From a virus (lineage: Duplodnaviria > Heunggongvirae > Uroviricota > Caudoviricetes): DNA of 64,000 nt. Below the pieces are notes generated by a model. It was given only the letters and a program-made list of their open reading frames with translations. It had not been told where the DNA came from and did no database searches. Below are positions 11,690 to 59,850 of this stretch, piece after piece (the first letter of the stretch is position 1; each line of letters begins with the position of its first letter). The translations under genes were made by a program, and so were the position numbers. The stretch is taken from IMG/VR virus record IMGVR_UViG_3300027963_000050; one strand, given 5' to 3'.

Positions 11690-12109
11690 TTACTTATTGA
11701 TTAATATCTCAACCAATTCATCAAGTATTTGTCCCGGTAAACTTTCATATTTAACATAATAGTCGCCTAAGTGACCATTAAACTCATCCTCATATCTACT
11801 AATATCTACACTCGTTAGACCTAACCATTCTATTTGATGTTCCTCCCCATCTTCATCACTATAATGAAGTGGTTCTTCATCTATTTCTGTCATACCAAAC
11901 CCACTAGCATCACCTAATTCTCTCACTCTTTCTTTAATGTAGTTGACCTTATCAATCTCCTTTAAGTAGGGCTCAATCATATAATAATTTCCCGCCAATT
12001 TAATGGCGTTGGAGACTCCCATCTTATCAATCATTGTTCTGATGGTGTCTTCCTTTTTATCTTCACTGATTAAGGTGCTAATTCTTTGTATGTTTTCTAT
12101 TAGGTTCAT
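11690..12109 (-). CDS. leader-family-2 protein (MNLIENIQRISTLI...)
   Basis: N-terminal MNLxENIxRI leader with the 'ggttcat' start context. Acidic. Confidence 0.55.
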   Translation of the reverse strand: MNLIENIQRISTLISEDKKEDTIRTMIDKMGVSNAIKLAGNYYMIEPYLKEIDKVNYIKERVRELGDASGFGMTEIDEEPLHYSDEDGEEHQIEWLGLTSVDISRYEDEFNGHLGDYYVKYESLPGQILDELVEILINK

Positions 12110-12859
12110 TTATAATAATTCTATAATATCTTTAACAATATCGGTTTTATCTCTCCTGTCACCTTTATCATCGTAAACACTTATAATATGTTTGGCAATA
12201 TCTTTGTTTTTAACATCTTCTTCTTTAGATAATGGGACGTACTTATTCCAATCATTCTCCATATCTAATCCACCCCAACCTTTCATTTCTTCAGTGTCAG
12301 GTAAATCTTCTTTATCAAATTTACCACCCTCACCTTGTCTCATTCTTTGTAACTTACCAATAAGCTCAGTTTCTTTTTCTTTTGTATGTTTGTGGTTCCC
12401 ACTTTGTAACCCTTGAATGATTTGGTCCATAAACCCTGTCCATCTCTCTGTATTACCTTTTCTTAATAACTCCTCTGATTTATCAGAATCTTGAGACGGC
12501 ATTAATAAGAATACGTTAGGGTATTGACTTAATAATTCTTTCACTCCATCATTGTAAACGTGTCCCCCACCAAAATCTAATATTGATGGTGTATTGTATT
12601 TATTAAAGTCCGGTGATAAAACATATTTTACCAACTCAAACTCTTTTCCATCACCATAACCAAACTTCTCTTGTAATTTGTCAAGTATTACATACTCAAC
12701 ACCAAGTTGTTTTGATAGTTCTTCAGCAACGGTTGATTTTCCTACTGTTGGTGGTCCAATTAAGATGATTCTATTTGTTCCGGAATAACCTTTTTGTTCT
12801 TCCTCAACAAGTAATCCCATCATTTCTTTGATTCTATGTATATTCTCGTGTAAGTTCAT
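12110..12859 (-). CDS. leader-family-2 protein with P-loop NTPase / nucleotide-kinase-like domain
   Basis: Track ORF 12110..12937. The internal Met at 12857-12859 (MNLHENIHRIKEMMGL) gives a TAA-N-ATG junction. Walker A motif LIGPPTVGKST. Confidence 0.55.
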   Translation of the reverse strand: MNLHENIHRIKEMMGLLVEEEQKGYSGTNRIILIGPPTVGKSTVAEELSKQLGVEYVILDKLQEKFGYGDGKEFELVKYVLSPDFNKYNTPSILDFGGGHVYNDGVKELLSQYPNVFLLMPSQDSDKSEELLRKGNTERWTGFMDQIIQGLQSGNHKHTKEKETELIGKLQRMRQGEGGKFDKEDLPDTEEMKGWGGLDMENDWNKYVPLSKEEDVKNKDIAKHIISVYDDKGDRRDKTDIVKDIIELL

Positions 12860-12860
12860 A

Positions 12861-13631
12861 TTATTTTTCTTCCGGTAATTTAGTATCTTTGATAAACTTC
12901 TTGTGTGAATCTTTATACGATTTTTGGGTTTCATCATTCACATCTTTGGTGTATTGCCAATTCCAATACAAGTCATCGTTTGGTTTGAATCCGTAGAATC
13001 TATGAACTTCTTTCTGAACTTCAGTAACATTCTCACCATTCCAATTCTGACCAACACAAATAAATCCGGTCTCAATATCCTCAACAAGATTTGATTCCCC
13101 CAATGTTGCGTGTCTGTTCTCAATCCAAGTCAATCTCTCAATTAAGTTCTGATAGAACATATTGGTTTGTCCCCATCTAATTGAACTAAAGAATATAACT
13201 GTATCAGATTCAAACAACTCTTTGGATATCTTCCATAACTCATCCTTTGGATTGTTATAACTTGCCCAACATCTGTGGTCTCCGGATGGATTCTTTTTCT
13301 TATCTTTGAGCATCGCTTTAAGTAACCCACAGCTGTTCCCATCTTTTCTTGATACATTCCCCTCACAAGGAACTATATTAAGTTCTGACACATCAATTAA
13401 CACTGAGTTTTTTAACTCATCGTTAAGATACATTGCAATCATTTTTGATTTTGGTATATCAATATCTTCCTTATCAAATTGGAATCTATTGGAACAACTT
13501 AAGATTAAAACTTTCTTTTTCTTTTTAAGAATGTCTAAGGTAGTTTTGATTGATTTCCACGCATCGGATTGAGCCATCTCTTCCGAAATCATCATTTCCC
13601 TTATTCTTTGTATGTTTTCTTGTAAGTTCAT
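12861..13631 (-). CDS. leader-family-2 protein, flavodoxin-like fold (NAD(P)H-dependent FMN reductase-like?)
   Basis: Internal Met at 13629-13631 (MNLQENIQRIREMM). KKVLILSCSNR ... DTVIFFSSIRWGQTNMFYQNLIERL resembles the FMN_red / flavodoxin_2 architecture. Weak call. Confidence 0.4.
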   Translation of the reverse strand: MNLQENIQRIREMMISEEMAQSDAWKSIKTTLDILKKKKKVLILSCSNRFQFDKEDIDIPKSKMIAMYLNDELKNSVLIDVSELNIVPCEGNVSRKDGNSCGLLKAMLKDKKKNPSGDHRCWASYNNPKDELWKISKELFESDTVIFFSSIRWGQTNMFYQNLIERLTWIENRHATLGESNLVEDIETGFICVGQNWNGENVTEVQKEVHRFYGFKPNDDLYWNWQYTKDVNDETQKSYKDSHKKFIKDTKLPEEK

Positions 13632-13632
13632 A

Positions 13633-14529
13633 TTAATATCTCCAACTTTCATCATCAAACTTAGTTTTATTTAATGTATCTTTATAATTTGATTCTTCTG
13701 TAAACCCTCCTCTTTCATTCACCCAATTATTAATATATTCAGGGTCACTATTAATATATACATTTCCTGTTGATATATTTTCTAATTTTGATTTAATGTT
13801 TTTAATCTCATCATCATTTAATGTTGTCTCTGAACCAACAACCCCATTTTTAATTCCTGACCCCGGTTCAATAGGATTAAATAACACATCCTTTATTTTA
13901 ATGTGTTGTACTATTTTTTCATTCCACGGTTGTGAACTTCCACCAATATTTGTTTTACCTAAATTTCTTGCGTTATTCCAATGTTTTATTTTATCTGCAA
14001 AAGTTTTTACTAATTCGTCAATTTTTCTATAGTAATGTATAAGTATTGTTTTATTTAAATTATTGTCGTTTTCACTAATTTCTTTATATATCTCATACTT
14101 TATTGGTGAAAATTTATTTAAAAATTCAGGAGGAAAATTAAGAGAACCAATCCATCTTCTACCACTTTCATCTGGTTGACTCATAGCGTCGGATGTTGAA
14201 TCAAAAACTAATTCACCTTCTATTTGAAATAGAACTCCTCCTTTTGTATTTATTCCTTTTAAATTAGATAAAAAATCTTTACCAATATATGTAAAAGTTG
14301 ATATTGGTTTTTCTTTACCAATAATAGATTTAATTTGGTCTATACGTGAAATATCAGTTATATGGAATGTTGTTATTTTTTCTCCACCATACAAATAATC
14401 AATAATACTATCAGTTAAAGGTATATTACCACTAAAGATTTGGTCCCTAATATTACTTTGATTTGAAAGGTCTTCATTGATTAAACCCATCATTGTTCTA
14501 ATCCTTTGTATGTTTTCATTTAAGTTCAT
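13633..14529 (-). CDS. leader-family-2 protein (MNLNENIQRIRTMMGL...), hypothetical
   Basis: Internal Met at 14527-14529. The leader is conserved at nucleotide level with its neighbours. Confidence 0.55.
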   Translation of the reverse strand: MNLNENIQRIRTMMGLINEDLSNQSNIRDQIFSGNIPLTDSIIDYLYGGEKITTFHITDISRIDQIKSIIGKEKPISTFTYIGKDFLSNLKGINTKGGVLFQIEGELVFDSTSDAMSQPDESGRRWIGSLNFPPEFLNKFSPIKYEIYKEISENDNNLNKTILIHYYRKIDELVKTFADKIKHWNNARNLGKTNIGGSSQPWNEKIVQHIKIKDVLFNPIEPGSGIKNGVVGSETTLNDDEIKNIKSKLENISTGNVYINSDPEYINNWVNERGGFTEESNYKDTLNKTKFDDESWRY

Positions 14530-14560
14530 AGTAATAAATATCTCGTTCTTTGACATATTG

Positions 14561-16204
14561 TTATAATCCGTATCTTACTGTACCAGCGGTATATATTGTT
14601 GATATCTGAGCAGCTGTTAATGTTTGATTATACACTTTAACTGTTGATATGTTTCCATTAAAATACGCATTACTTGCAGCTCCATTTCTACCAATGTTAA
14701 CCACACTACTACTATCATTAATAATATTACCAGGATTTACTGAAGATGTATAGGTTTGAGAACCATCTAGATATGTTGTAAAATTCGTACCATTAAAAGT
14801 CATTGTCATATTATGCCAAACATTCGTGGATATTGACCCTCCCGTAGTAGTATAGATACCAGTACTTGTATATAAAACAGAAAATAAACTTGATGTACTA
14901 ACAGCAAGACCCCAACCACCTGAAGTACCTCCAAATTTTATAAGGTAATTGGTCCCACTTTGTGCCGAACTTATTTTAAACCAAACACTAACTGTTAAAT
15001 TAGTTGTAATTGAAGATATATTAGTATATGACGTTAAATCTATATAATCATTTGACCCGTCAAATAAAAATGACCTTTGACCATCTCTTGATAAAGCAAC
15101 ACCATTTGTTAATATTCCGTTAGTATTATTCCCACTAATATCGTTAGCAGTACTTGCCGTCATTACCTGTTTGTTTGTATTATTACCATCTAAATATAAA
15201 ACTAACCCATTTGTTGGTATGAATCTTTGAAGTCCTGCGTAGTAATTTTGTAATATTTCTGCATTTGAAAGTGCTCTTTCATAAACTTGTAAACTATACA
15301 CATAACCTTCATAATATAAGTTAGGAATATGTGTTGCACATAAATTTTGGTTATCAGAATTTAATGTTTGTCCTGACAAATTTAATGAACCTGTTGTAGA
15401 TGTGGTATTAACATATAAAGTATGGACTCCGGTAGTTTTATTAAAAATACCCGCCAACATACAATTACTACCCATAGTTATAGGTAAACTAACATTTAAT
15501 AGTGTGTTTGATGAACCTCTAACTTGAAAATATGCGGTTGTAGAGTTTTGAATTGTTAACTGTATTAACTCAGTAATTGAATTTCTATACGAGTATACAA
15601 CTCCCGGAGGACTTACTGGCGTATTTGGATTTATAAAACAAATAACAGTTAATTCAGTTGGATTAGAAATGGGAATATTACTACCCACATTTACATAGGC
15701 ATTACTACCATTACTAAAATATAATCTACCACCATTTGTTGAGTCATATGGAGCACTATTAGCGATTGAACCTCCACCAGCCGCCCCACTCAACTCAGCA
15801 ATTGCACTACCGGTTTTAGGATAACAAGACACAATTCCCATATCCAAATAAATTGTCAAACCACTTGTGACAATATTTGGCACATCCACATTAAGACAAG
15901 TACCTGCACTGGGGTTGTCTTTAAAATAAGTTAACGCTTGCCCTATTGTTGTATTCCCACTCCCACCTAATTGATTGGAATATGTTATTAATTCTGAATC
16001 ATTTGCCGCAGCATAAAGTGTTGGACTACTAGCTCCATTGGATTTGTATATTGTATAACCACTAACATTAGGTGTTTTACCATTCCAAAATCCGGTAACT
16101 GAAGTTAATCCATAACCGCCTTGATTAACTCCGACGGCAAAAGACCCTAACCTAATTGTGTTTATTGATGTTAAGACGGGGGAATATTTAATTACGTTTG
16201 CCAT
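14561..16204 (-). CDS. putative tail fibre / receptor-binding protein with two concanavalin-A-like (LamG-type) lectin domains
   Basis: 547 aa, rich in S/T/N/G. Motifs LTIYLDMG...YFSNGSNAYVNV and LVLYLDGNNTN...FLFDGSNDYIDL with a C-terminal ...NAEILQNYYAGLQRF are typical of the ConA-like/LamG jelly-roll. Paralog of 17192..19120. Confidence 0.5.
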   Translation of the reverse strand: MANVIKYSPVLTSINTIRLGSFAVGVNQGGYGLTSVTGFWNGKTPNVSGYTIYKSNGASSPTLYAAANDSELITYSNQLGGSGNTTIGQALTYFKDNPSAGTCLNVDVPNIVTSGLTIYLDMGIVSCYPKTGSAIAELSGAAGGGSIANSAPYDSTNGGRLYFSNGSNAYVNVGSNIPISNPTELTVICFINPNTPVSPPGVVYSYRNSITELIQLTIQNSTTAYFQVRGSSNTLLNVSLPITMGSNCMLAGIFNKTTGVHTLYVNTTSTTGSLNLSGQTLNSDNQNLCATHIPNLYYEGYVYSLQVYERALSNAEILQNYYAGLQRFIPTNGLVLYLDGNNTNKQVMTASTANDISGNNTNGILTNGVALSRDGQRSFLFDGSNDYIDLTSYTNISSITTNLTVSVWFKISSAQSGTNYLIKFGGTSGGWGLAVSTSSLFSVLYTSTGIYTTTGGSISTNVWHNMTMTFNGTNFTTYLDGSQTYTSSVNPGNIINDSSSVVNIGRNGAASNAYFNGNISTVKVYNQTLTAAQISTIYTAGTVRYGL

Positions 16205-16264
16205 ACTATAAGTTTATATAATAAATATAAAAAAAAAGAGAATATTACTTCCTCTCGTTTAATT

Positions 16265-16546
16265 TTATCTACCTTCATATTGCCATAGAACAGCATTACA
16301 ATAACTATGGACCGCACCTTCTGTCATATTTGTCTTGTGACAATGTTGAAGGTGGATTGGATGGTCTAAAAACCCTTGCGGAAATAAACCCCAAGTAATT
16401 GGTTTTTTTGTTATCCTTTCGGGTGCACCTTCATATAATGTTTCACCACAATACATACACAGATTGTTCTGTTCCTTAATGTATTGTAGTCTAACTTCCC
16501 TCCGTTGTGATGGTGTTAATTTTGTATAGTCCGTTGGTAAATTCAT
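16265..16546 (-). CDS. HNH endonuclease (93 aa)
   Basis: CMYCGETL ... HLQHCHKTNMTEGAVHSYCN: CxxC plus the H-N-H zinc-finger nuclease signature. Sits between the two fibre paralogs. Confidence 0.6.
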   Translation of the reverse strand: MNLPTDYTKLTPSQRREVRLQYIKEQNNLCMYCGETLYEGAPERITKKPITWGLFPQGFLDHPIHLQHCHKTNMTEGAVHSYCNAVLWQYEGR

Positions 16547-16579
16547 AAAGATTTATTTTGGTAAATTAAAATAATATTG

Positions 16580-16587
16580 TATCTTTG
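16580..16587 (+). promoter_or_regulatory. TAtcTTTG -7 box for the plus-strand cassette 16611..17163
   Basis: attgTAtcTTTGtaatc, 24 nt before the ATG at 16611. Confidence 0.4.
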
Positions 16588-16610
16588 TAATCTAATTAAA
16601 ATAATCAGTT

Positions 16611-16775
16611 ATGTCAAATACTATGTCAGTTGATTCATCAACATTCTCAAGATTAAAAAAAGAGTATCAAAATGCTGTGGCTAATTCTAATAACACCTTC
16701 ATTTTTGATGGTAATGAACTTCTAACCACCTACGCAAAATATCTAATCGAGTACTTAACCCCTATGTTTAAATAA
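16611..16775 (+). CDS. small hypothetical protein (54 aa)
   Basis: ATG 24 nt after the promoter box. The stop overlaps the next ATG (TAAAATG). Below the track size cut-off. Confidence 0.3.
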   Translation: MSNTMSVDSSTFSRLKKEYQNAVANSNNTFIFDGNELLTTYAKYLIEYLTPMFK

Positions 16776-16776
16776 A

Positions 16777-17163
16777 ATGGATGATTACCACGCAATTTAT
16801 GTAACAAAAGTTCTTCGTATTATTAAAAAGTATATGAAAAAACATCCTATAACCGGAATGGTTGAAATGCCTCAGTGGTTTCAATTTCATTATAAGGTTA
16901 AAGGGGTTAGATTTAAAAACGATTGCTATTCTTGGAATAGAGTTCTTTATGTTAATATTGAAGTGTCAGACAAATATTGGAGAATATTAAACCCTATCTC
17001 AGGAATTTCAGGATGGGGTCATTCACAATATTATATGTGGTCATCAAGAAGAAGAAACCAATATATTAGAGATTATGTGAAAAAAGATGTGGAAAAATCA
17101 ATTGGTTTATTTACAATCCCTATTAGAGTAGAGATTGGAACAATTAAGATGGTGGGAGAATAA
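16777..17163 (+). CDS. hypothetical protein (128 aa)
   Basis: ORF followed by a GGTGGG-N7-CCCACC terminator hairpin at 17148-17178. Confidence 0.45.
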   Translation: MDDYHAIYVTKVLRIIKKYMKKHPITGMVEMPQWFQFHYKVKGVRFKNDCYSWNRVLYVNIEVSDKYWRILNPISGISGWGHSQYYMWSSRRRNQYIRDYVKKDVEKSIGLFTIPIRVEIGTIKMVGE

Positions 17164-17178
17164 CCCACCATTTTTGTT
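17148..17178. terminator. intrinsic terminator hairpin (GGTGGG-agaataa-CCCACC-ATTTTTG)
   Basis: 6-bp GC stem plus T-run at the end of 16777..17163. Confidence 0.5.
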
Positions 17179-17191
17179 CTTTGACATATTG

Positions 17192-19120
17192 TTATAAGTT
17201 GTGTCTTTGTTTACCCGCATTGTAAATAGTTAAAACTTCTGAAGCCGTTAAAAGATTCTGATAACTTCTAATTACTGACATATAACCTTTAAAATAATTA
17301 ATACTTGAACCACTGTCTCTACCAATATTAACAATTGTACTACCACCATTAGTACATAGATTACCCGCATATGTTGATGATGTAGCAACGACAGAACCAT
17401 CTAAATAAAGAGTATAAGCACCCGCATAATCAAAAGTCATTGTCACATTATGCCAAACATTTAACGATATCACACCCCCTGCACCACTACCACCACCAAT
17501 ATAACTACCGGCAGTTGTATAAAAACTATAATAAAGACCCGAAGAAGAAACTCCAATTGACCATCCCGCAGATGTTGCTCCATACTTTATAATTGTATTT
17601 GAACCAACCGGTGTTGTATAAAGTTTAAACCAAATACTAATACTAAAATAACTACCTTGGTATGTCAAATGATAAGGTGACCCACAATCAATATAATTAT
17701 TTACACCATCAAAAGAAAATGATGTTCCGGCTTCTCTATGAGCAAGACCCATACCATTCATTAACGAACAATTATTAAGGTCAAAACCCATATCATATGC
17801 GGTAGTTGGAGTTATTACCCTTGTGTTTGTGTTTTCACCATCTAACCATAAATTTATAGTATAAGTATTCCCATTAATAAATCTTTGAAGTCCTGCATAA
17901 TAGTTTTGTAATATTTCAACAACTGAGAGTTGTCTGTTATATACCATAACATTTGCTATGTTACCAACCATTGCTTCGGTTGAAACTTCGGAGGATAATT
18001 TATAACCAACCGCCGAATCTAAAACACCCCCTAATGTAACTAATGACGCACCCAATTGTACACCATCAATATATATATAAGCATTTAAATTATTGAACAC
18101 CCCAACCATATTATACCAAACATTATTTGTAAAAGTTTTAGCTCTCGACAATACAAATGTACTACCACCCATTTTAAAAAAAAACTCAGCATTTGACCCA
18201 TTTTTTCTAATACAAGCAATTTCATTACCAACCGTCATAAATCTCATAATTGTATTGGGTTGAGAAGTAAATTTGAACCAAGCAGATACTGTAACACCAG
18301 CAGTTAAAGTCATTGCTGTGGAACCGGTTACGTGTTGATTATTTGAGGCAGCAAAAACTAACGAACCAAAATTACCTGAATCATATGTTGGCCCTGTATT
18401 AACAAATGTTCCATCATTACTATTTCCACTTAAATCTTTCCAAGTAGAACCTCCTTTAGGATATGATGGTGTAAATCCCGCGTCTAAATTAAGAGTTAAA
18501 CCACTTGCAACAATATTTGGATAATCTGTATTAACACAAAGTTTATCTGTTGATGTATTAAAATAATTCAAAGCATCATATTCTGTAGTTATACCAACAC
18601 CACCTAATTGAGTCGCGAAATAAATTAAATCACTTAGAGAGTTTGAAATATACATAGTCGGAGTACTTGTTCCATTACCAACATACACAACAGCACCATC
18701 TCGATTGCTTGGTGATTTTCCGTTCCAAAAACCTGTTGATGATGTTAAACCATATCCACCTTGATTAACACCAATAGCCCCATAGTTACTACTAACTATT
18801 ATAGGTAGGGTTGATACCACCGCATTTAAACAAATACCTTGTACACTTGCAGTACTAAGAGTACTAGCGTATAAAATATTGTTTTTATAATAATAAAGCC
18901 CAGTTAACCCACTAGCACAAAACGCATTTTGGAAAACACCTGAACCACTAAACAACACAACGTTATCCACTTGACCGGGACAAGGAGTTATACCCACAAT
19001 AACTTTGTTAGTAAAAGTTGCATTCCCACCAGTATTTCCTGTTGCAGAATTTATGTCAGTAGCACTAATTGTTGCCACATAACTATTACAAAATGTAGTA
19101 TTTTTAATTGGATACGCCAT
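17192..19120 (-). CDS. putative tail fibre / receptor-binding protein, ConA-like lectin domains (paralog of 14561..16204)
   Basis: 642 aa. Shares N-terminal IGVNQGGYGLTS.TGFWNGK and LT[IL].LD.G...YF motifs with 14561..16204. The 3' flank cgttctttgacatattgttataa is duplicated at 14532 and 17176. Confidence 0.5.
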   Translation of the reverse strand: MAYPIKNTTFCNSYVATISATDINSATGNTGGNATFTNKVIVGITPCPGQVDNVVLFSGSGVFQNAFCASGLTGLYYYKNNILYASTLSTASVQGICLNAVVSTLPIIVSSNYGAIGVNQGGYGLTSSTGFWNGKSPSNRDGAVVYVGNGTSTPTMYISNSLSDLIYFATQLGGVGITTEYDALNYFNTSTDKLCVNTDYPNIVASGLTLNLDAGFTPSYPKGGSTWKDLSGNSNDGTFVNTGPTYDSGNFGSLVFAASNNQHVTGSTAMTLTAGVTVSAWFKFTSQPNTIMRFMTVGNEIACIRKNGSNAEFFFKMGGSTFVLSRAKTFTNNVWYNMVGVFNNLNAYIYIDGVQLGASLVTLGGVLDSAVGYKLSSEVSTEAMVGNIANVMVYNRQLSVVEILQNYYAGLQRFINGNTYTINLWLDGENTNTRVITPTTAYDMGFDLNNCSLMNGMGLAHREAGTSFSFDGVNNYIDCGSPYHLTYQGSYFSISIWFKLYTTPVGSNTIIKYGATSAGWSIGVSSSGLYYSFYTTAGSYIGGGSGAGGVISLNVWHNVTMTFDYAGAYTLYLDGSVVATSSTYAGNLCTNGGSTIVNIGRDSGSSINYFKGYMSVIRSYQNLLTASEVLTIYNAGKQRHNL

Positions 19121-19380
19121 TATTCAATAAGAAATGGTGTTGACCACTCTAATGTAGATAGAATATCTAATATCTCATCATAGGTATAAGGACCTTCCTT
19201 TGTTGTTAATGTTGAAACACATTCCGGTGTTTCACCATCCCATTTAACAAACGTTTTGGTTTGGTCAACGGATTTTCTAACTGTTTCTTCAGATGTTTCT
19301 AATACTTTAGTAAAATCAATCTTGTTTAATTCTGATATGTTGAATATCATAAATTGTCTGTTTTCGTAATCTTGTGTCAT
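19120..19380 (-). CDS. hypothetical protein (86 aa)
   Basis: ORF. ATGA overlap with the upstream gene. Confidence 0.45.
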   Translation of the reverse strand: MTQDYENRQFMIFNISELNKIDFTKVLETSEETVRKSVDQTKTFVKWDGETPECVSTLTTKEGPYTYDEILDILSTLEWSTPFLIE

Positions 19381-19384
19381 AATA

Positions 19385-19780
19385 TTATCCTATATTTGCT
19401 GCTGTTATTCCTCTAACACCATAGTCAGGGAAATGTTTTTTGAAGAAGTCCTGAATCGCATATTTAAAGTGTCTTGACGCATAACCATAAGGTACAAATT
19501 TCACTAACATATCTTCTAATGAATAATCCCACCATATTTGCTCATTCTTTTTATCATACCTCATTAAATATTTATTATCGTTCTTGTCATTAAATAATAC
19601 TATTGTATCATCATTTTCACTATAAGCATTTATCTCCATACTTAAAAACTTAATCATAATTTTTTGCCACTTTGGATATTCCTCTTCATACTCTTGGTCA
19701 TAACGTTCCCTTGAGATATGAGCGTCTTTACCTTCGTCCATTATTGATTTGATTCTATCTATGTTCTCGTATAAATTCAT
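19385..19780 (-). CDS. leader-family-2 protein (MNLYENIDRIKSIM...)
   Basis: Internal Met at 19778-19780 with the 'aaattcat' context. Confidence 0.5.
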   Translation of the reverse strand: MNLYENIDRIKSIMDEGKDAHISRERYDQEYEEEYPKWQKIMIKFLSMEINAYSENDDTIVLFNDKNDNKYLMRYDKKNEQIWWDYSLEDMLVKFVPYGYASRHFKYAIQDFFKKHFPDYGVRGITAANIG

Positions 19781-19799
19781 TATAACTTTATTCTGTTTA

Positions 19800-20405
19800 T
19801 CACACACAAGAAACGAAACTAGTAACAGTTACAACTTGACCATTTTCATTTGTTACTGTACCATTATCACCGAAACCACAATTAGTTTCACTTAAAACCC
19901 CAAATCCTGTGTATGGTATTGTTAATTCTGGATTAGTGAATAGGTATGAACCAACAACTATTGTTTGGTCATTAGAATAAAATGTTACCGGAGTCTCATC
20001 ACAACAAGTTACATATGAAGTGAATGTGTATACTACTGTTGGATAACTATTCCAAAATCCGTTTGACGATAACCAATTTGAAGCATTTACAGCAGTAGAA
20101 AATGTTTGTGGATTACCGTAAACTCTTGAAACAATTTGAGCCCAATTAATAAATGAGCTGGGTGTTAAATCACTTCTATAAAACCCAACTGAAGCATAAA
20201 CACCCGATATAGGCGTTGGTTGAGTATTTCCCGAAACAGGTGCCGCAATTACATAACCTAACTCTTCATCAGGTCCGTTCCACCAAACAACACCACCACC
20301 CAAATCACGAGCGCCAATTGGGCCAATGGCTAATGTACCAACTTGAGTTGCAGAAGCAATTGGTGTTAATGAAGGATTATACGCGAAAGGTCTTGCTCTT
20401 GACAT
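19800..20405 (-). CDS. fibre-module protein sharing N-terminus (MSRARPFAYNP...WWNGPDEELGYVIAAPVSGNTQPTP) with 20433..22016
   Basis: 201 aa. N-terminal about 60 aa paralogous to the next gene. WWNGP motif related to FWNGK of the ConA-like genes. Confidence 0.5.
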   Translation of the reverse strand: MSRARPFAYNPSLTPIASATQVGTLAIGPIGARDLGGGVVWWNGPDEELGYVIAAPVSGNTQPTPISGVYASVGFYRSDLTPSSFINWAQIVSRVYGNPQTFSTAVNASNWLSSNGFWNSYPTVVYTFTSYVTCCDETPVTFYSNDQTIVVGSYLFTNPELTIPYTGFGVLSETNCGFGDNGTVTNENGQVVTVTSFVSCV

Positions 20406-20432
20406 AGTTATTTAATTTTATTTAATTTTATT

Positions 20433-22016
20433 TTATCTTACCCAATACCATATTATTCCCGGATTTGGCATACAACCTTCAACACCACAATTACCACTAA
20501 TCCAAGGTGCTGGGTTCCAACCCCCATTAGTAATTATAGTTCCCCACCATTCAGAGTTGTAAATATATGAAGTTGTTAATATACCACTATTATTACCACC
20601 ACGGTAAGGCATTATTTGTTCAATACTAGAACTACCATACTCCCAAGTACCAAATTTAATATCAAGAGTAATACTTGTTTGAGTGTTAGCTGTATGAACA
20701 AACGAATAAGATTGAGGTGCTGACCATATACCACCAAATTGGTTTCTTTCGTAAGCATCTATCATATATTGAAACGTTAATCCGGTGTCTTTAATATAAT
20801 CAGCATAAGCAACTATTGAATAGTTTTCACCATTTATAACAGGATTAAATTCATTTAATAATATAGAGTTTTCGTATGTCCAATCGTGAGTATCTTGATT
20901 TGTAACTAATAATGTCCATCCACCTCCATCTGTTGTCATATCAGCGTATATTTGGAATGGTGTTCCACCACTAATATTACCATTTACAATCCAATATAAA
21001 CCATCGGTTGATGCTGAAAAATTTGTTTTAATTTGAAGAGCATTATCACCCGCAGTTTGTGGTGTTGTACCATCTTTATATGAATGCCAATAACCGTGGT
21101 CGGTTAACCAAACACCCGCTAAAGTAGCGTTTGAAAAAGTTTGATTAAAATATTTGTTCACTAACGCAATAAATGTTGAGTCTTTAAATGGGTCGACTTG
21201 GTTTTTGGTTCCAATAAATTTAACTGACGCAGTTAGGTTTGAACCCAATAATGTATAACCTTCAGGTACACCATAAGTGGATGTGTTTAAAATTTCCATT
21301 GTACCAATGGTTCCCGGACAAAATGCAGGATAAATGTTTGTTAAACTAAAAGTACTTAATCCACTATTCCCTGATTCCGGAGTTTGGTCTATGTCATTAT
21401 TCCAATAACCACCATTTACTCTTATCCATACTTTAGTAGAACTACAATTTATTACAAAATCAACAATATCGTTGCTTACCCAAGTTGGTAATCCCGATAC
21501 TTCAACGGTTCCATTTTTCCAATAATGTCCAGCAACATCAACACCAATACTTTTATCATCATTACCAGGATAACCTAAAGGTCCTTCATAATTCATAGAT
21601 GATTTTCCAAAACCTATGAAAGCGGGTTCTCCAGGAAATGGAGAAGGGGGTTCTTGGTATTGAACACTAAACATAACTTTATCGTTATTATTTATCAATG
21701 TATTACCTAATACTGTTTGTTGTTTATTGGTGGGTTGATACGCAATTTGGTCAGAAGATAATATAATACTACTTCCTTTATAAACATTACTTAATGTTAA
21801 ATGTCCATCGGGAGCCCCACTAAATAATGGAGTTGGTTGAGTATTTCCCGAAACAGGAATTGCAATAACATATCCTTGCTCTTCATCAGGACCATTCCAA
21901 AATTGAGGTGAATCGGTAAATCCTGTTATTGGAGCACCAACGGCTAAATCACCAACTTGTATAGTACCACTTATTGGGTCTCCCGGATTATATGCGAATG
22001 GTCTTGCTTTAGACAT
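20433..22016 (-). CDS. fibre-module protein with fibrinogen-related-domain-like region (..YADMTTDGGGWTLLV..)
   Basis: 527 aa. The N-terminus is paralogous to 19800..20405. The internal PFQIYADMTTDGGGWTLL matches the FReD hallmark (DxDTDGGGWT[VL]). Confidence 0.5.
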   Translation of the reverse strand: MSKARPFAYNPGDPISGTIQVGDLAVGAPITGFTDSPQFWNGPDEEQGYVIAIPVSGNTQPTPLFSGAPDGHLTLSNVYKGSSIILSSDQIAYQPTNKQQTVLGNTLINNNDKVMFSVQYQEPPSPFPGEPAFIGFGKSSMNYEGPLGYPGNDDKSIGVDVAGHYWKNGTVEVSGLPTWVSNDIVDFVINCSSTKVWIRVNGGYWNNDIDQTPESGNSGLSTFSLTNIYPAFCPGTIGTMEILNTSTYGVPEGYTLLGSNLTASVKFIGTKNQVDPFKDSTFIALVNKYFNQTFSNATLAGVWLTDHGYWHSYKDGTTPQTAGDNALQIKTNFSASTDGLYWIVNGNISGGTPFQIYADMTTDGGGWTLLVTNQDTHDWTYENSILLNEFNPVINGENYSIVAYADYIKDTGLTFQYMIDAYERNQFGGIWSAPQSYSFVHTANTQTSITLDIKFGTWEYGSSSIEQIMPYRGGNNSGILTTSYIYNSEWWGTIITNGGWNPAPWISGNCGVEGCMPNPGIIWYWVR

Positions 22017-22081
22017 AATTGTTTTATTTATCTATAAATACTTCTTCAATTAAAATAATTGTGAGTTTTAAAAATATATTG

Positions 22082-22089
22082 TATCTTTG
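22082..22089 (+). promoter_or_regulatory. TAtcTTTG -7 box, ATG 5 nt downstream (near-leaderless)
   Basis: attgTAtcTTTGacgtATGaaa. Confidence 0.45.
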
Positions 22090-22495: not shown

Positions 22496-22831
22496 TTAAT
22501 CATAATCGTGTTTAGCAAGTATATAAACTTTATCAGCCTCTATTCTAATCCTATCTTTAAACCACCACCAAATAACTCTTTCAAGTTCTTCTTCACTAAA
22601 TGAAAATACTTTTAATGGTAACCACACATCTCTATAAACATACACAGCATCATTATTTTCCAACCATTTTAATACAATTTTACCGTCTTTATTTTTAAAA
22701 GTTATTCTATGATTACTAAATACAGAATCTTTATTTAAATCAACATCTTCACGAGTCAATTGATTTATTTTATCATCTAATATCTTATATGCTAATTGGT
22801 ATCTTTTATTCTCTGTTATTAGTATCTTCAT
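22496..22831 (-). CDS. leader-family-1 protein (MKILITENKRYQ...)
   Basis: Leader. First of four tandem family-1 genes on the minus strand. Confidence 0.6.
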   Translation of the reverse strand: MKILITENKRYQLAYKILDDKINQLTREDVDLNKDSVFSNHRITFKNKDGKIVLKWLENNDAVYVYRDVWLPLKVFSFSEEELERVIWWWFKDRIRIEADKVYILAKHDYD

Positions 22832-22833
22832 AA

Positions 22834-23223
22834 TTAAATGTAATCATTAGTTATTTGAGCAACTTCTAATCCTGAATTTTCTTCAAACCATTCCTTGAAT
22901 ACCGGTAACCATTTGTCACCAAATAAAGATGTTAATTTTTCACCAACCGAAGGATATACTAACAATAAAGGACATTTATAATTATGTAGGTGTCCGTAAC
23001 CCGCAAAAAATTCATCTTCCGGACCAGCATTGGCATTACACCCGTAATAGATATAAGAGTCTAAATCATTAATAAAAAAAACAAGGTCACCATACCTATC
23101 AACATCTTCTTGATAAGAGCCGTGTCTTGTGTTTTCATTCCACCCATAATCCGGATAATATGTATCATCCAAATACTTACGGATGATTTGATTAACTCTA
23201 TTCTCAGATATTATTATTTTCAT
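22834..23223 (-). CDS. leader-family-1 protein (MKIIISENRVNQ...)
   Basis: Leader. TAATTATG junction. Confidence 0.6.
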   Translation of the reverse strand: MKIIISENRVNQIIRKYLDDTYYPDYGWNENTRHGSYQEDVDRYGDLVFFINDLDSYIYYGCNANAGPEDEFFAGYGHLHNYKCPLLLVYPSVGEKLTSLFGDKWLPVFKEWFEENSGLEVAQITNDYI

Positions 23224-23527
23224 TTTTCATCATTTTACCTTCTAAACCCCAATCTGAAGCGTATTCATCAAGTTCAAGACCAAACATAGGGTTAAGTTGA
23301 GTCTTTATTTTCTTTAACGTATAACTTGGACTGTGAGTCATTTTACCGTCAATAAAACCAATATGTATTTTGGTTCTACTTATAATATTTTCACCTCGTT
23401 TGTTCTCACCACTAGCCAATTGAATTTGTTTTGTTTCAAAGGTCACTTTTCCCACCATAGGAAATGTAGTGAGAATATACTTCTCAATTAAATCATTTCT
23501 TCGTTCTTCTTTAATTAATATCTTCAT
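23204..23527 (-). CDS. leader-family-1 protein (MKILIKEERRND...)
   Basis: Leader variant. TAATG junction. Confidence 0.55.
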   Translation of the reverse strand: MKILIKEERRNDLIEKYILTTFPMVGKVTFETKQIQLASGENKRGENIISRTKIHIGFIDGKMTHSPSYTLKKIKTQLNPMFGLELDEYASDWGLEGKMMKNENNNI

Positions 23528-23850
23528 TAGTTTAATAATCCTTTATTTACGTGTTGGATAATATTAACCGGTAATTCAAATTTATCAGAAAACCATTCTT
23601 TAACCAACATTTTAACCTGATATGGTGTATAACTAAAATATATAATTGGTTTTATCACATCATCACAAATATATAATATCCCTGACATATAAAGCATTAT
23701 CACACCATCCCCATTACGATATTCAATACGTTTTTTCTCCCCCATTGAATCGGTCACATAATTTACATCCTCATACATACCGGAGAACTCCTTATCCAAT
23801 TCCTGTTTGGCTAATTTGTCCCTTTTATTTTCAGTTATTACTACTTTCAT
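23527..23850 (-). CDS. leader-family-1 protein (MKVVITENKRDK...)
   Basis: Leader. TAATG junction. Confidence 0.6.
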   Translation of the reverse strand: MKVVITENKRDKLAKQELDKEFSGMYEDVNYVTDSMGEKKRIEYRNGDGVIMLYMSGILYICDDVIKPIIYFSYTPYQVKMLVKEWFSDKFELPVNIIQHVNKGLLN

Positions 23851-24458
23851 TAGTTTCTGTTTCCAATATTATTTAATCGTGAGTTGTAAACACTTCTGTA
23901 TTTACTTTTGAGTTCATTATCCGGTAATTCTTCTAATTGATTTCTTCTATGTAATGTTTCCTTATCTAAATAATCAATCATTTCTTCTCTACTAATATTA
24001 TCCATATTAATCATCTGATAACATTTATTGAAATTGTCGTTAATTAATGTTTCATCAATTTCAAATTCAGGATGTCCCATTTCTTGTCCAAATTTGGTTG
24101 CGTATTTCTCATCATACCATTCGGTAATTACATTAAGAATAAAGGGTTGTCTAACCTGTAACATTTTGGATAAAAATTCAATCTCATTTTTATCAACATA
24201 TAAATCACCAGCAAAAAACTTTTCTTCATCACTTTCCTCATCACTAAAAAAATATTTTGCCTCCATAACCAATCTATCACCTTTACACCACTCCTCACTA
24301 TAATTTCCGTAATTATCTTCAGGCGGTGGAAGAACTCTTGATGTCTTTGAGATAAGTTTCTCCATATGTTTTATGATAACAGATTCAGCATTAACCCCAC
24401 CTTTAATGAATTTTCTACTAACCTCTTCTCTTAATATTTTTTTAATTAAATCTTTCAT
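23850..24458 (-). CDS. leader-family-3 protein (MKDLIKKILREEVSRKF...)
   Basis: N-terminal MKDLIKxILREE leader shared with 24458..24799 and 41424..42344. Confidence 0.55.
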   Translation of the reverse strand: MKDLIKKILREEVSRKFIKGGVNAESVIIKHMEKLISKTSRVLPPPEDNYGNYSEEWCKGDRLVMEAKYFFSDEESDEEKFFAGDLYVDKNEIEFLSKMLQVRQPFILNVITEWYDEKYATKFGQEMGHPEFEIDETLINDNFNKCYQMINMDNISREEMIDYLDKETLHRRNQLEELPDNELKSKYRSVYNSRLNNIGNRN

Positions 24459-24799
24459 TATTTACCGTTCTTAATTATTAATTCACCAAGTACCTCAATT
24501 AATCCAACCAACTTTTGGAATTCAACTTGTTCCATATTAACATCCTTAGACAAACCACACAGCTTATCAAGGTGTTCTTTGAATTCTTTTTTAGATTCGT
24601 TGATATCAAACTTACCTTCAGAAGCTTTCTTATAGTATGGTAATTTAACTCTAAAGTGGTGATAGGTTAACATAGATGCTCCACCCTTTTCTTTTGCGTT
24701 CTCAGTAATCTTTGACGCTCCGTCAAATCTCTTTTGAGCAAACTCCTCAAACTTGGATTGAGATTCTTCTCTTAATATTTGTTTAATTAAATCTTTCAT
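24458..24799 (-). CDS. leader-family-3 protein (MKDLIKQILREESQSKF...)
   Basis: Leader. TAATG junction. Confidence 0.55.
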   Translation of the reverse strand: MKDLIKQILREESQSKFEEFAQKRFDGASKITENAKEKGGASMLTYHHFRVKLPYYKKASEGKFDINESKKEFKEHLDKLCGLSKDVNMEQVEFQKLVGLIEVLGELIIKNGK

Positions 24800-41392: not shown

Positions 41393-41427
41393 AAAAAAAA
41401 GGAACTAAATGTTCCTCTTTTTTTTAA
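41393..41427. terminator. intrinsic terminator hairpin (A8-AGGAAC-taaat-GTTCCT-T8)
   Basis: Between 40597..41343 and 41424..42344. Confidence 0.6.
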
Positions 41428-42344
41428 TTTGTTAATTCTATCACCGTGTTACCATCCGTTAAGTATTTTGGGTAAGTCCTCAGTATGTCTTGTTTAATTG
41501 TTTTCATAATGTTTTCCACTAGTTCAGGGTTGTCTTTGAAGTTGGAATCCGGAATCATTTTTCTATCAACCATTTTACCTGCTTTAAGAATTTTAACATA
41601 TAGTTTAATCTTACCGTCAACCTCTTCAACATCGTTAATCATAAAATTAACTCTGTGAGCATTTTCCCCCCAACCACCACTAATTAATTTTGATTGGTTA
41701 GTTACACTATCTTTATTCCCAACAAAGTTTGTAACTCTATCCGTATTAACTCTTTCAAGATTATAACGACCATCCATAAGACGTTCTATTTCACCCTTAG
41801 TTACACCAATAACATCTGAGTTTAAGTTTGAATCAAATTTAACAGGGTTGACTTGACTCATTTGTTTTATTGTTGAACTAGAATAAGTATCTAAAGTTCT
41901 ATACCATTGATTATTAATGAACAAGAATACTGGATACCAACCATACGATTTAATCACATAGTACCAATCATTATTATTATTCACATCCCATTGTCCTTCA
42001 ACATTTGAACCTTTGAACGGCATTCTAGCTGAAGCGTATTCATAAGCAGAATTGTTTGCAACTTTCTTTTGTTTGAATTGTTTAAAATCCTTAAAGTTTT
42101 CTTTGGTTATATTTTCGTAATCACCTTCCGGTCTGAAATTGGCGGTATAAACTTCATAATAAAAATTTGACTGATTAGACGATAAACCAAGAACCGGCAA
42201 CATAGACTTAAGAAATTTTAACATTTCCGGTTTAGTCTTAGTCTCCTTTTTATGTTTATCAATATACTTGAATAACATAATTTCCTTTTTAGTTAAAGGT
42301 CCTTCTTGTTCTTCTCGTAATATACGTCTAATTAATTCTTCCAT
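41424..42344 (-). CDS. leader-family-3 protein (MEELIRRILREEQ...), 306 aa
   Basis: N-terminal leader variant of MKDLIKxILREE. Confidence 0.5.
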   Translation of the reverse strand: MEELIRRILREEQEGPLTKKEIMLFKYIDKHKKETKTKPEMLKFLKSMLPVLGLSSNQSNFYYEVYTANFRPEGDYENITKENFKDFKQFKQKKVANNSAYEYASARMPFKGSNVEGQWDVNNNNDWYYVIKSYGWYPVFLFINNQWYRTLDTYSSSTIKQMSQVNPVKFDSNLNSDVIGVTKGEIERLMDGRYNLERVNTDRVTNFVGNKDSVTNQSKLISGGWGENAHRVNFMINDVEEVDGKIKLYVKILKAGKMVDRKMIPDSNFKDNPELVENIMKTIKQDILRTYPKYLTDGNTVIELTN

Positions 42345-47902: not shown

Positions 47903-48766
47903 TTATACAACCTCTTCTTTTAATTCTAATTTTGTTTGTTTTCGTTCATCAATTAACGCTTGGACTCTTTTTCTTGCAATCTCAGTATAATCCGGAGACA
48001 ACTCAATTCCAATCCATCGTCTATCTAATAACTCAGCCGCAAATGCTGATGTTCCACTTCCCATAAAGGGGTCAAGAACAATATCGTTCTTATAAGACAA
48101 TATTTTAATTGCTTTTGACGGGATGTCCATCGAGAATGTAGCTTTAGTTAATGACCTAGTGTCCGCAAAATATTCCCATCGACCAAACACCAAATTCATA
48201 AACTCTTTCTTGTCTTCGTCTTGATAAACCATTTTATTTTTAACCTTACCATCTTCAGTAGTAACCTCAGTTGGTGTTCCCAACCATTGTGAGACCCCTT
48301 TAGATAATTTTTTACTTGTTTTCTTATAAGCTAAAATTATACACTCTTTAGGATTGTAAACATAAGGTGCTGAAGCACTCATCCAAGAACCCCAAGCTGT
48401 CTGTCTAACTCTATGGGGACTATCTTCTGTAAGGTCAACTAACCCACTAAACTTAAACCCCACTTCTTTCATCATCATCCAAAACTCCGCAACAAATAAT
48501 ATTCTCCCACCTCTTTCTTGAACATTCAATTCATTTGGAACATTCACCGCAATCCTACCATCATCCTTCAATACTCGGAACGCCTCTCTCAACCAATCTT
48601 TTGACCACTCGTAATACTCTTCCATTGGTAAATCATCCTTATGAACATCATAAGATATGTTTACGTTATATGGTGGTGATGTTACTAGTAAATCAATTGA
48701 ACCTTCAGGAAATGTTTTCATTACCTCAATACAATCTCCATTTATAATCTTTCCTGTTTCTATCAT
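47903..48766 (-). CDS. DNA N6-adenine/N4-cytosine methyltransferase (beta-class, orphan)
   Basis: N-terminal DLLVTSPPYN (motif IV) and C-terminal DPFMGSGTS (motif I). Confidence 0.8.
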   Translation of the reverse strand: MIETGKIINGDCIEVMKTFPEGSIDLLVTSPPYNVNISYDVHKDDLPMEEYYEWSKDWLREAFRVLKDDGRIAVNVPNELNVQERGGRILFVAEFWMMMKEVGFKFSGLVDLTEDSPHRVRQTAWGSWMSASAPYVYNPKECIILAYKKTSKKLSKGVSQWLGTPTEVTTEDGKVKNKMVYQDEDKKEFMNLVFGRWEYFADTRSLTKATFSMDIPSKAIKILSYKNDIVLDPFMGSGTSAFAAELLDRRWIGIELSPDYTEIARKRVQALIDERKQTKLELKEEVV

Positions 48767-49291: not shown

Positions 49292-50404
49292 CTATTCTTC
49301 TCTATATTCCCCTAATAATTCTTCATTTGACATAATACCCGAGAATTGTTCTCTGATTTTTGATGTATCCACATCGTCATACATTGCGTGAATGGTTTTT
49401 TCCAATTGGTTAGCAAAAACCAATGCGTCATAAATAACACCAATAACTTTATACGGATTAGCGTTTGACGATGGTCTTCTATCCTCAAGGTAACCTTTCC
49501 AAGTTTCACCAACTGATTTAGGAACTCTAATAGACGCCCCTCTATCCGATATACCCCAACTAAATTTGTCGATTGATTGTGTCTCAAATTTACCAGTTAA
49601 TCTTAAATGATTATCCGAACCATAGTTTTCAATATGAATATTTTGTCTTGAATCAAATGAACCAAAAATTAATTTAAAATAATCTTCCCCACCTACTTCT
49701 CTCATCTTTTTGTTTGAGAAGTTTGTGTGTAACCCTGAACCATTCCACTCCCCAATTTGAATTGGTTTTGGATGAAGTTCAATTGCATAACCTCTTTTCT
49801 CGGCTAGTTTATGTAAGATGTATCTTGACATCCATAAGTCATCAGCTGATGCTAATTTACCTTTGGAGAATATTTGATATTCCCATTGTCCTAACGCAAC
49901 CTCAGCATTGGTTCCCTCAACATTAATACCTAACTCAAGACAATAATTTAAATGTTCATCACTTAAATCTCTACCAACTATTTGTCCACCAACACCACAA
50001 TAGTATTTACCTTGTGGGTCAACAGTTCCACCTCTTTCAAACCCTAGAACATCTTTGTTGTGAGCTGAACGAATAAAGTATTCTTGTTCAAACCCAATCC
50101 AAAAATCGGTATCTTCATCACCTAACTTACTTCTGTCGTTTGTTTCGTGTGGTTTATTATCTTTATCCAACACCTCACATAAAACATAAACCAAATTAGT
50201 ATTACCTTTTTTATACATTCTAACAGGTTTAAGGTAACAATCTGAAGAGAATCCTTCGGCTTGCATAGTTGAACTACCATCAAAACCCCACGCAGGAATA
50301 TCACTAACCTCTTTTGGTAATGTATCAACAACTTTAATTTTACTTCTTAAATTTGGTTCCGGCTTGTATCCGTCAAGCCAAATGTATTCCAACTTCACTT
50401 TCAT
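49292..50404 (-). CDS. glnA: glutamine synthetase, type II (GSII)
   Basis: EYIWLDG..LRSK N-terminus, WGFDGSSTMQAEGFSSD, and HPKPIQIGEWNGSGLHTNFSNKKMRE (GSII ATP/ammonium-site signature). About 370 aa, typical of GSII. Confidence 0.85.
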   Translation of the reverse strand: MKVKLEYIWLDGYKPEPNLRSKIKVVDTLPKEVSDIPAWGFDGSSTMQAEGFSSDCYLKPVRMYKKGNTNLVYVLCEVLDKDNKPHETNDRSKLGDEDTDFWIGFEQEYFIRSAHNKDVLGFERGGTVDPQGKYYCGVGGQIVGRDLSDEHLNYCLELGINVEGTNAEVALGQWEYQIFSKGKLASADDLWMSRYILHKLAEKRGYAIELHPKPIQIGEWNGSGLHTNFSNKKMREVGGEDYFKLIFGSFDSRQNIHIENYGSDNHLRLTGKFETQSIDKFSWGISDRGASIRVPKSVGETWKGYLEDRRPSSNANPYKVIGVIYDALVFANQLEKTIHAMYDDVDTSKIREQFSGIMSNEELLGEYREE

Positions 50405-59524: not shown

Positions 59525-59622
59525 AATTTCTTTTTTATAAAGTATAAGAAATAAAAAGTGAAAAAGCAACTTTCTCTTTCAAATATTTTTAACTATATTT
59601 ATTTTAAATTAAATTTATAACT

Positions 59623-59850
59623 ATGGAAACTGTAGAAGGAGAAATCATTGACGTAACGGAAATAAACAAAAACGTTGTACCTGAACCCCCTAAAAAAAAT
59701 TGTAAAACTTGTAAACAAGGTAAAGAAGCTGTATCGTCTGTTAGACAAACTCAAAAAATACTAGTATTCGCATCTCTTTATTTTTTATTTGCCGGTATAT
59801 ATGGTACAATAAAATTGATTAAGGATATTCTACATTATTTTGGATATTAA
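59623..59850 (+). CDS. small C-terminally membrane-anchored protein (75 aa)
   Basis: ORF with a CKTCKQGK segment and a C-terminal hydrophobic helix. Confidence 0.4.
   Translation: METVEGEIIDVTEINKNVVPEPPKKNCKTCKQGKEAVSSVRQTQKILVFASLYFLFAGIYGTIKLIKDILHYFGY

Follow-up and report, generated by a model that had tools for sequence, protein, structure and literature searches.

The stretch of DNA analysed here, called the window, is 64,000 nt long with 31.8% GC and comes from the IMG/VR record IMGVR_UViG_3300027963_000050, a virus classified in Caudoviricetes. Our subject is a group of genes on its minus strand, within 14.5-22.0 kb, that an earlier note written from the sequence alone had described as a four-gene fibre or receptor-binding module. 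The four open reading frames (ORFs) lie where that note had put them, all on the minus strand, and are here named A, B, C and D; related contigs and loci are labelled L001, L007, L025 and so forth. The note made no mention of a fifth gene, encoding 86 aa, nor of an insertion in B or of the SPRY and intelectin-like domains of D, all of which are described below.

14561..16204, minus strand: gene A, 547 aa
17192..19120, minus strand: gene B, 642 aa
19120..19380, minus strand: 86-aa gene, its stop overlapping the start codon of B (ATGA)
19800..20405, minus strand: gene C, 201 aa
20433..22016, minus strand: gene D, 527 aa

The proteins A-D stand out by their composition. Serine, threonine, asparagine and glycine together make up 37-46% of their residues, as compared with 24 ± 3% in 30 other ORFs of the window, which bears out the S/T/N/G-rich character ascribed to them, and charged residues make up 7-13% as compared with 29% in the same 30 ORFs. 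Among the ORFs of at least 90 aa in the 64 kb, a similar composition is otherwise seen just in two short ones on the plus strand (93 and 102 aa), which we take to be spurious. None of A, B, C and D has a hydrophobic signal or a transmembrane segment, so that exposure outside the cell would need incorporation into a virion, or lysis.

The N-terminal module and the distal domains

The xWNG[KP] segment of A-D is part of a domain of about 110-125 aa, which we call the N-module. When profiles of the A/B-type and the C/D-type module were compared with HHalign, they aligned over 94 columns with a probability of 96.4% (E 1.2e-9), and the N-module is therefore common to all four proteins. The homology that had been proposed for the segment thus stands, even if it extends over a whole domain instead of a short motif, and even if the domain is not simply N-terminal in B, where it is interrupted. 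In an alignment of D with 120 homologs, residues 1-64 and 259-313 are nearly invariant with a variable middle between them, and in many relatives the two blocks are directly joined. The motifs WNGPDE.LGYVIA and NGYWNSY are nearly invariant in the N-module, and the C-termini that follow it vary.

The structure of D residues 1-315 was predicted by AlphaFold2 (AF2) with a predicted local distance difference test score (pLDDT) of about 90. In this model, four short strands from the first block and a fifth strand and two helices from the second form one compact alpha/beta unit, while residues 65-258 make a separate beta-sandwich, and D is thus predicted to carry a SPRY domain nested within its N-module. 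All structure searches were dominated by the SPRY domain, and no fold match was obtained for the N-module itself. Nor was there any sequence match for it in Pfam, PHROGs, the PDB sequences or 50,697 deposited phage genomes; in the latter, both megablast with the region and tblastn with the N-module consensus came out empty, and tblastn with D gave weak matches just to the SPRY and the C-terminal domain. The domains of the four proteins, with separate evidence in brackets where there is any, are as follows.

15890..16204, minus strand: A, N-module, aa 1-105 (HHalign to the C/D module)
15227..15889, minus strand: A, first LamG domain, about aa 106-326 (Pfam)
14564..15226, minus strand: A, second LamG domain, about aa 327-547 (Pfam)
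18512..19120, minus strand: B, N-module including the insertion, about aa 1-203 (module alignment)
18806..19090, minus strand: B, the insertion, residues about 11-105, about 95 aa with four Cys
17876..18511, minus strand: B, first LamG domain, about aa 204-415 (Pfam)
17195..17875, minus strand: B, second LamG domain, about aa 416-642 (Pfam)
20043..20405, minus strand: C, contiguous N-module, aa 1-121 (hidden Markov model matches, n1 2e-26 and n2 3e-13)
19803..20042, minus strand: C, distal domain of about 80 aa with four Cys
21825..22016, minus strand: D, N-module part 1, aa 1-64
21243..21824, minus strand: D, predicted nested SPRY domain, aa 65-258
21078..21242, minus strand: D, N-module part 2, aa 259-313
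20436..21077, minus strand: D, C-terminal domain, aa 314-527, its first 45 or so residues resembling subdomain A of fibrinogen-related and intelectin lectins

A and B had been called paralogs with duplicated LamG/ConA-like motifs, and this is what we find. They are 40% identical across 536 aa (E 1e-100), and each has two stretches that match Pfam family PF13385 (Laminin_G_3, here LamG), with 115.3 bits and E 3.4e-33 for A and 121 bits and E 6.4e-35 for B, the gathering cut-off being 27.6 bits. The best stretch spans positions 1-151 of the 151 in the profile, which places both proteins in the Laminin_G_3/concanavalin A-like lectin superfamily; among PDB entries A matches the S-layer-domain protein 4qvs (3e-7). 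B begins in a module-like way with MAYPIKNT, has its insertion after the first strand, and resumes the module at about residue 106 to continue to about residue 200. The insertion is found neither in A nor in the ortholog in L025, and is, beside the SPRY insert of D, a second case of an N-module that tolerates insertions.

C and D had been said to share their first 60 residues or so, and residues 1-66 are indeed 65% identical, with a weaker second stretch of similarity between residues 67-121 of C and 259-313 of D. The predicted structure and the structure search give residues 65-258 of D the bent beta-sandwich fold of SPRY domains. The Pfam match to PF00622 (SPRY) is 21.2 bits, below the gathering cut-off of 26.3, and many homologs of D carry a precomputed match to that family. 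In BFVD the best neighbour of D, with 40% identity over 323 columns, is a SPRY protein from a phage recorded as 'uncultured Caudovirales phage', and a tail fibre of Burkholderia phage AH2 that contains SPRY comes second.

The C-terminal domain of D, residues 314-527, begins with about 45 residues that contain DGGGWTLL, the conserved start of fibrinogen-related domains (FReDs) and intelectins. It matches Pfam PF00147 (Fibrinogen_C) with 20.6 bits (E 4e-4), which is below the cut-off of 22 and covers only profile positions 13-52 of 221, and its start matches the Xenopus embryonic epidermal lectin (XEEL) at 4e-4. A profile of the C-terminal family finds intelectin-1 in the PDB at 1.8e-5, over about 45 residues only. 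The remaining 165 or so residues have no detectable similarity to known domains, and the AF2 model of the domain has a mean pLDDT of 38 with a cleaned alignment of 55 sequences, and of about 30 inside the full-length model. We use the word intelectin-like for this domain as a lead, suggested by the sequence, and not as a statement of membership. Weak homologs of it occur in T4-like cyanophages, where they include the S-ShM2 gp035 family, and one of them is encoded in a tail-fibre gene cluster, with a tail fibre gene four genes upstream.

A word-indexed protein search with the first 115 aa of A returned 4 relatives only, and we instead searched 1.84 billion representative proteins exhaustively with a profile, the clusters being defined at 50% identity. 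This gave 1,468 clusters with an N-module at E up to 1e-3, of which 892 reach 1e-10 or better. With few exceptions, the module begins at residue 1 in the best 150 of the 1,468 hits, in proteins of 147-958 aa, and it is followed by 0-840 aa in the relatives. Pfam recognises Laminin_G_3 in 26 of 123 representatives, DUF285 in 4, a DUF5122 propeller in 2 and a sialidase N-terminal lectin domain in 2, with one case each of Fib_succ_major, Gly_rich_2, an L-type lectin and discoidin, and most of the C-termini in this set have no Pfam match. Some relatives consist of the N-module and SPRY alone (312-324 aa). The proposal of a conserved N-terminal domain joined to interchangeable lectin-type distal domains is thereby supported.

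Tandem arrays of two to four N-module genes are found in L001, L007, L009-L015 and L107, and it is between such related contigs that the exchange of distal domains, for which the earlier note had suggested looking, can be followed. For D and C, the orthologous site in L001 has a protein of the same architecture as D with 59% identity. The D-type protein of L007 is without SPRY: what it lacks is precisely the part between D64 and D259, and the identity to either side of this is 65-67%. The second gene at this position has a different C-terminal domain in each contig. The distal domains are thus variable and horizontally exchanged behind a conserved N-terminal anchor.

In the closest relatives the D/C-type genes lie inside clusters of glycosyltransferase and FkbM-type methyltransferase genes (L001:3093-9968 and 12840-20680, L007:2952-11578, L111:493-6758), the glycosyltransferases being of GT2/GtrB-like, GT9, GlcNAc-T (PF11397), GT10 and PLOD-type (Pfam GT_PLOD) families. 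A linker rich in proline and threonine follows directly after the N-module in 47 of 148 representatives. Since many N-module proteins have such linkers, it is conceivable that they are glycosylated.

The small partner gene and the variable island

The 86-aa gene belongs to a family that we found in 36 fetched loci, with 30 distinct proteins; members include L001:8726-9001, L009:7097-7372, L025:9732-9998, L116:8992-9330 and L117:7998-8249. The identity of the hits found by BLAST to the protein of the window ranges from 78% down to 25%. In all 38 occurrences of the family there is a LamG ORF on the same strand within 100 nt, as compared with 3% of control ORFs of similar size, and the adjacency to a LamG adhesin gene is accordingly obligate in the material at hand. 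Of the 30 distinct members, 25 lie directly downstream of the LamG gene; the window is unlike this usual arrangement, with the small gene upstream of B. The protein is matched by no Pfam or PHROG family and by nothing significant in the PDB, and so falls in no known chaperone family, but it may be a chaperone or an adaptor of the LamG proteins.

Homologs are also found in two cultured phages, Synechococcus phage S-SKS1 (62% identity) and Flavobacterium phage vB_FspM_immuto (below, immuto). In immuto the small gene comes after two LamG genes annotated as structural proteins, between one gene with the annotation tail fibre and another with putative tail fibre-like, and the genes for the tail sheath, the tube and the baseplate hub come a few genes farther downstream. 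In S-SKS1 the small gene comes after three LamG proteins, and the group lies directly downstream of the baseplate wedge and of a tail fibre gene.

The genes A-D do not form a fixed operon, as can be seen from L025 (IMGVR_UViG_3300032330_001609, 214,776 bp). This contig is syntenic with the window over 11.7-22.1 kb and the flanking genes are 75-97% identical at the amino acid level, but D, C, A and three genes downstream of A are missing. L025 has a single LamG gene at the position of B, with 38-39% identity to both A and B, and it is flanked by homologs of 19120..19380 and 16777..17163. With such differences in D, C and A, the four-gene set is what a rapidly changing island contains at present. 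An endonuclease VII-like gene, at 16265..16546 in the window, sits in L025 where D and C lie in the window, and a small nuclease gene beside variable cassettes might promote their exchange.

An identical 3' flank of 23 nt had been reported after A and B, at 14532 and 17176. A repeat of this length is there, with zero matches expected by chance, but its copies begin at 14544 and 17175, they differ by one mismatch, and the last 6 nt belong to the gene itself (a Leu codon and the stop).

14544..14566: first copy of the 23-mer, made up of 17 nt of flank and the 3' end of A (its last Leu codon and the stop); no hairpin
17146..17197: hairpin and second copy together, the terminator hairpin part being 17146..17174
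17175..17197: second copy of the 23-mer, directly after the hairpin, with one mismatch

The copy after B is the tail of an intrinsic terminator, found in a terminator scan, of the convergent plus-strand gene 16777..17163, with the stem ATGGTGGG/CCCACCAT. This hairpin and a 12-nt core, ATGTCAAAGAAC, are kept after the orthologous LamG gene in L025. Between the two copies in the window a core of 22 nt is identical, though the adjacent coding DNA is far more diverged. The simplest reading is that a duplication or recombination had its breakpoint at the 23-mer and brought a second LamG cassette into the island, and that this event would be more recent than the coding divergence, at 40% identity, suggests. 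We also considered the 23-mer as the start region (MSKN, in frame) of the downstream gene 13633..14556, and rejected it, as in the paralogs of 13633..14556 the start lies at the MNL motif and the copy after B is a terminator tail.

Virus, proposed role and rival explanations

Contigs that carry the N-module reach 321 kb. Related contigs encode endolysins (PG_binding_1, GH19, GH25), an L,D-transpeptidase-like domain, a ribonucleotide reductase and an extracytoplasmic function (ECF) sigma-70 factor, and the endolysins and the sigma factor identify them, by gene content, as bacteriophages. As the flanking genes of the window are 75-97% identical to those of the 214,776-bp L025, the phage from which the window comes probably has a genome of about 200 kb. 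A 40-mer from the right end of the window has no match in the sets viral_contigs and metagenome_contigs, and look-ups by exact protein with genes at its ends likewise gave no extension. That the virus could instead be a giant virus of eukaryotes, with A-D as capsid fibrils or lectins mimicking those of the host, is an idea one may get from the low GC, the many ORFan paralog families, the DnaJ and glutamine-synthetase-like genes of the window and the eukaryote-type glycosyltransferases (GT10, GT92, GlcNAc-T) in some related loci. We regard it as highly improbable: the related contigs have endolysins directed at peptidoglycan, together with the L,D-transpeptidase-like domain and the ECF sigma-70 factor, the best structural neighbour of D is annotated to an uncultured Caudovirales phage, the homologs of the small gene and of the LamG proteins are in tailed phages, and no hallmark gene of the nucleocytoplasmic large DNA viruses was found. 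Among 185,579 bacterial and archaeal genomes the N-module was matched only in three short contigs from metagenome-assembled genomes (MAGs; L112-L114), labelled Flavobacteriales, Bacteroidota and 'uncultured bacterium'. These labels, and the lack of Shine-Dalgarno-like sequences before the genes at 14.5-22 kb, give a weak hint at a host among the Bacteroidota.

Our preferred explanation, to which we give a little better than even chances, is that A-D and the 86-aa gene form a set of modular adhesins displayed on the virion of a large uncultured tailed phage from freshwater, whose host is possibly a member of the Bacteroidota. The N-module would dock each of A-D onto one conserved partner in the virion, and the variable lectin-type heads would bind glycans on the host surface, these heads being the two LamG domains in A and in B, the SPRY loop and the intelectin/fibrinogen-like domain in D, and the small Cys domain in C. 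With several paralogs on one type of anchor, a single virion could have several binding specificities, and the host range would change when recombination exchanges heads, brings in new domains or adds paralogs. The 86-aa protein would be a dedicated helper for the folding or attachment of the LamG proteins, much as tail-fibre assembly proteins are for fibres. Association with the virion is suggested by the composition, by the absence of export signals and by the gene context in the two cultured phages, and for the LamG half of the set the context in immuto and S-SKS1 is the best available evidence of an association with the tail.

Conserved anchors with variable heads are well known from the tailspike sets of multi-tailspike phages of the CBA120/G7C type and from docking domains like that of T4 gp10. 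The set in the window is like these sets of receptor-binding proteins (RBPs) in that the N-module is common to tandem paralogs, and in that their distal parts differ and are swapped among relatives. Unlike them, the anchor of A-D has no detectable sequence relation to the known ones, the monomer model predicts no trimeric beta-helix or fibre, and the jelly-roll heads often sit on Pro/Thr linkers. Small proteins for tail-fibre assembly encoded beside the fibre genes are likewise familiar, e.g. lambda Tfa and T4 gp38/gp57A. The 86-aa family is like these in being small, in lying invariably beside an adhesin gene and usually immediately downstream of it, and in doing so across a wide divergence, but it is without similarity to the known chaperone families, and the gene of the window precedes B, with an overlap at the B start codon.

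LamG3 and SPRY lectin domains have been described on tail fibres and virion components of jumbo phages (Iyer et al. 2021, PMC7824862), and A-D are like those proteins, and like the proteins of immuto, S-SKS1 and Burkholderia phage AH2, in having the same domain families and in coming from large phages. The small adjacent gene, of about 85 aa, is a further likeness between the window and both immuto and S-SKS1, whereas A-D differ from the LamG proteins of these two phages in carrying the N-module, in the SPRY domain that is nested in the module of D, and in not lying in a recognisable tail cluster. As for the C-terminal domain of D, it is like the intelectins (X-type lectins) and fibrinogen-related domains (ficolins, tenascin, FIBCD1) in its first 45 or so residues, including D-G-G-G-W-T-L, and unlike them in the remaining 165 or so, which have no detectable similarity to theirs; the Pfam score, 20.6 against 22, falls short of the cut-off.

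Several observations weigh against virion adhesins. As the N-module is unmatched in deposited phages, PHROGs, Pfam and the PDB, no member of the family has ever been shown in a virion, and the LamG proteins of immuto and S-SKS1 are without it. No structural gene (capsid, portal, sheath or baseplate) was recognised among the scanned ORFs of at least 120 aa in the window, where the neighbours are small K/E-rich ORFs and P-loop kinase-like and endonuclease VII-like genes. The attachment to a baseplate that had been proposed is thus not supported, and A-D do not lie in a recognisable tail or baseplate gene cluster in the window. The closest relatives of D and C, in L001 and L007, are flanked by glycosyl- and methyltransferase genes and not by tail genes. 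The AF2 monomer of D has globular domains only and no trimeric shaft; the trimeric fibre N-domain that had been expected from structure prediction is not supported, the module being compact alpha/beta with no evident shaft or coiled coil. The intelectin-like label of D is based on about 45 residues with no confident fold model (pLDDT 38), and SPRY domains usually bind protein and not sugar. A match to BppL_N (baseplate) in L005 was left aside, as it is a stretch of 13 residues in a profile of 25 positions.

The main rival to the adhesin explanation is that A-D are accessory decoration proteins of the T4 Hoc or whisker type, so that they would coat the capsid or tail surface by means of the N-module and give a weak and non-essential adhesion, to particles, mucus-like polymers or cell surfaces, without being the primary RBPs that determine host range. 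Globular domains on flexible Pro/Thr linkers, with no rigid trimeric fibres, agree with decoration, and paralogs on one anchor are what one expects when there are many equivalent binding sites; the lack of D, C and A in L025 suggests that they are dispensable, and in the window the genes are outside any recognisable tail cluster. Against this, the pair of a LamG gene and a small gene lies in tail-fibre and baseplate clusters, not head clusters, of two cultured phages, and A-D have neither Ig-like domains nor similarity to known decoration proteins. On the whole we find decoration unlikely. Somewhat less probable still is that the proteins are not part of the virion at all and act inside the cell or after lysis, by binding host proteins or glycoconjugates, by blocking receptors on cell debris or as partners of the neighbouring glycosyltransferases. 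The composition (7-13% charged, 37-46% S/T/N/G) is unlike that of the other proteins of the window and typical of fibre and surface proteins, the repertoire of C-termini is dominated by extracellular lectin and adhesin families, a strictly N-terminal anchor with variable distal domains is the pattern of virion adhesins, and a cultured phage has homologous LamG proteins with the annotation 'structural'. For a role outside the virion speak the lack of adjacent structural genes in the window, where A-D lie among many small ORFs like those of early genes, the glycosyl- and methyltransferase genes that flank the D/C-type genes in L001, L007 and L111, and the fact that eukaryotic SPRY domains bind proteins inside cells.

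One may go further and speculate that the N-module is a widespread docking domain, not described before, of large uncultured phages from aquatic environments, with its approximately 1,470 clusters, and that these phages recognise hosts by a different architecture, with a mixture of lectin heads instead of classical trimeric fibres. Many monomeric heads would then be held at one conserved site of the virion, on flexible and possibly O-glycosylated Pro/Thr tethers or looped out from the anchor as SPRY is, with the 85-aa protein as helper. This is a tentative picture, and we think it rather doubtful.

What we regard as new is the anchor domain family, the insertion of a SPRY domain within another domain, the architecture of tethered globular domains, and the obligate small partner gene of LamG proteins. 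It was already known that LamG and SPRY domains occur on the fibres of jumbo phages, and a conserved anchor with a variable head is the standard logic of RBPs; the general picture of modular RBPs in phages is unchanged, and gains a new domain family. In the genomes of uncultured phages, nothing is harder to predict than host recognition. The anchor domain flags approximately 1,470 clusters of adhesin candidates and the small partner gene flags LamG adhesins, and together they would help annotators to find determinants of host range among the 'hypothetical' genes of freshwater and marine jumbo phages. The nested SPRY domain, and the differences in presence and absence among near-identical genomes (the window as compared with L025, L001 and L007), make up a natural series for the gain and swapping of adhesin domains. 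The heads could also find use as lectin reagents, should they prove to bind defined bacterial glycans.

Neighbouring genes and other elements

Small K/E-rich ORFs of the window make up several paralog families with conserved N-termini, located at 11690..14556, 19385..19807, 22496..24799 and 41424..42344, all on the minus strand. MNLxENIxRIxxMM occurs in five of these genes, among them two that are direct neighbours of the adhesin genes, three genes contain MKDLIKKILREE, and four tandem genes of 107-129 aa begin with MK[IV][ILV]I.E.

A 14-mer, CAAAGATACAATAT, followed by AT-rich sequence, has only two exact copies in the 64 kb, about 40-70 nt upstream of the starts of D and of the endonuclease VII-like gene, and it may be a phage promoter element.

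22076..22089, minus strand: 14-mer upstream of D
16574..16587, minus strand: 14-mer upstream of the endonuclease VII-like gene

Farther away in the window, the minus strand encodes an N6/N4 DNA methylase (47903..48766), a glutamine-synthetase-like protein (49292..50404), a Dam-type (D12) methylase (58676..59569) and a DnaJ (59847..60770). The DnaJ is full-length, with the J domain, the CXXCXGXG motif and the C-terminal domain, and DnaJ homologs are found in megaphages (Lak and LR-series records).

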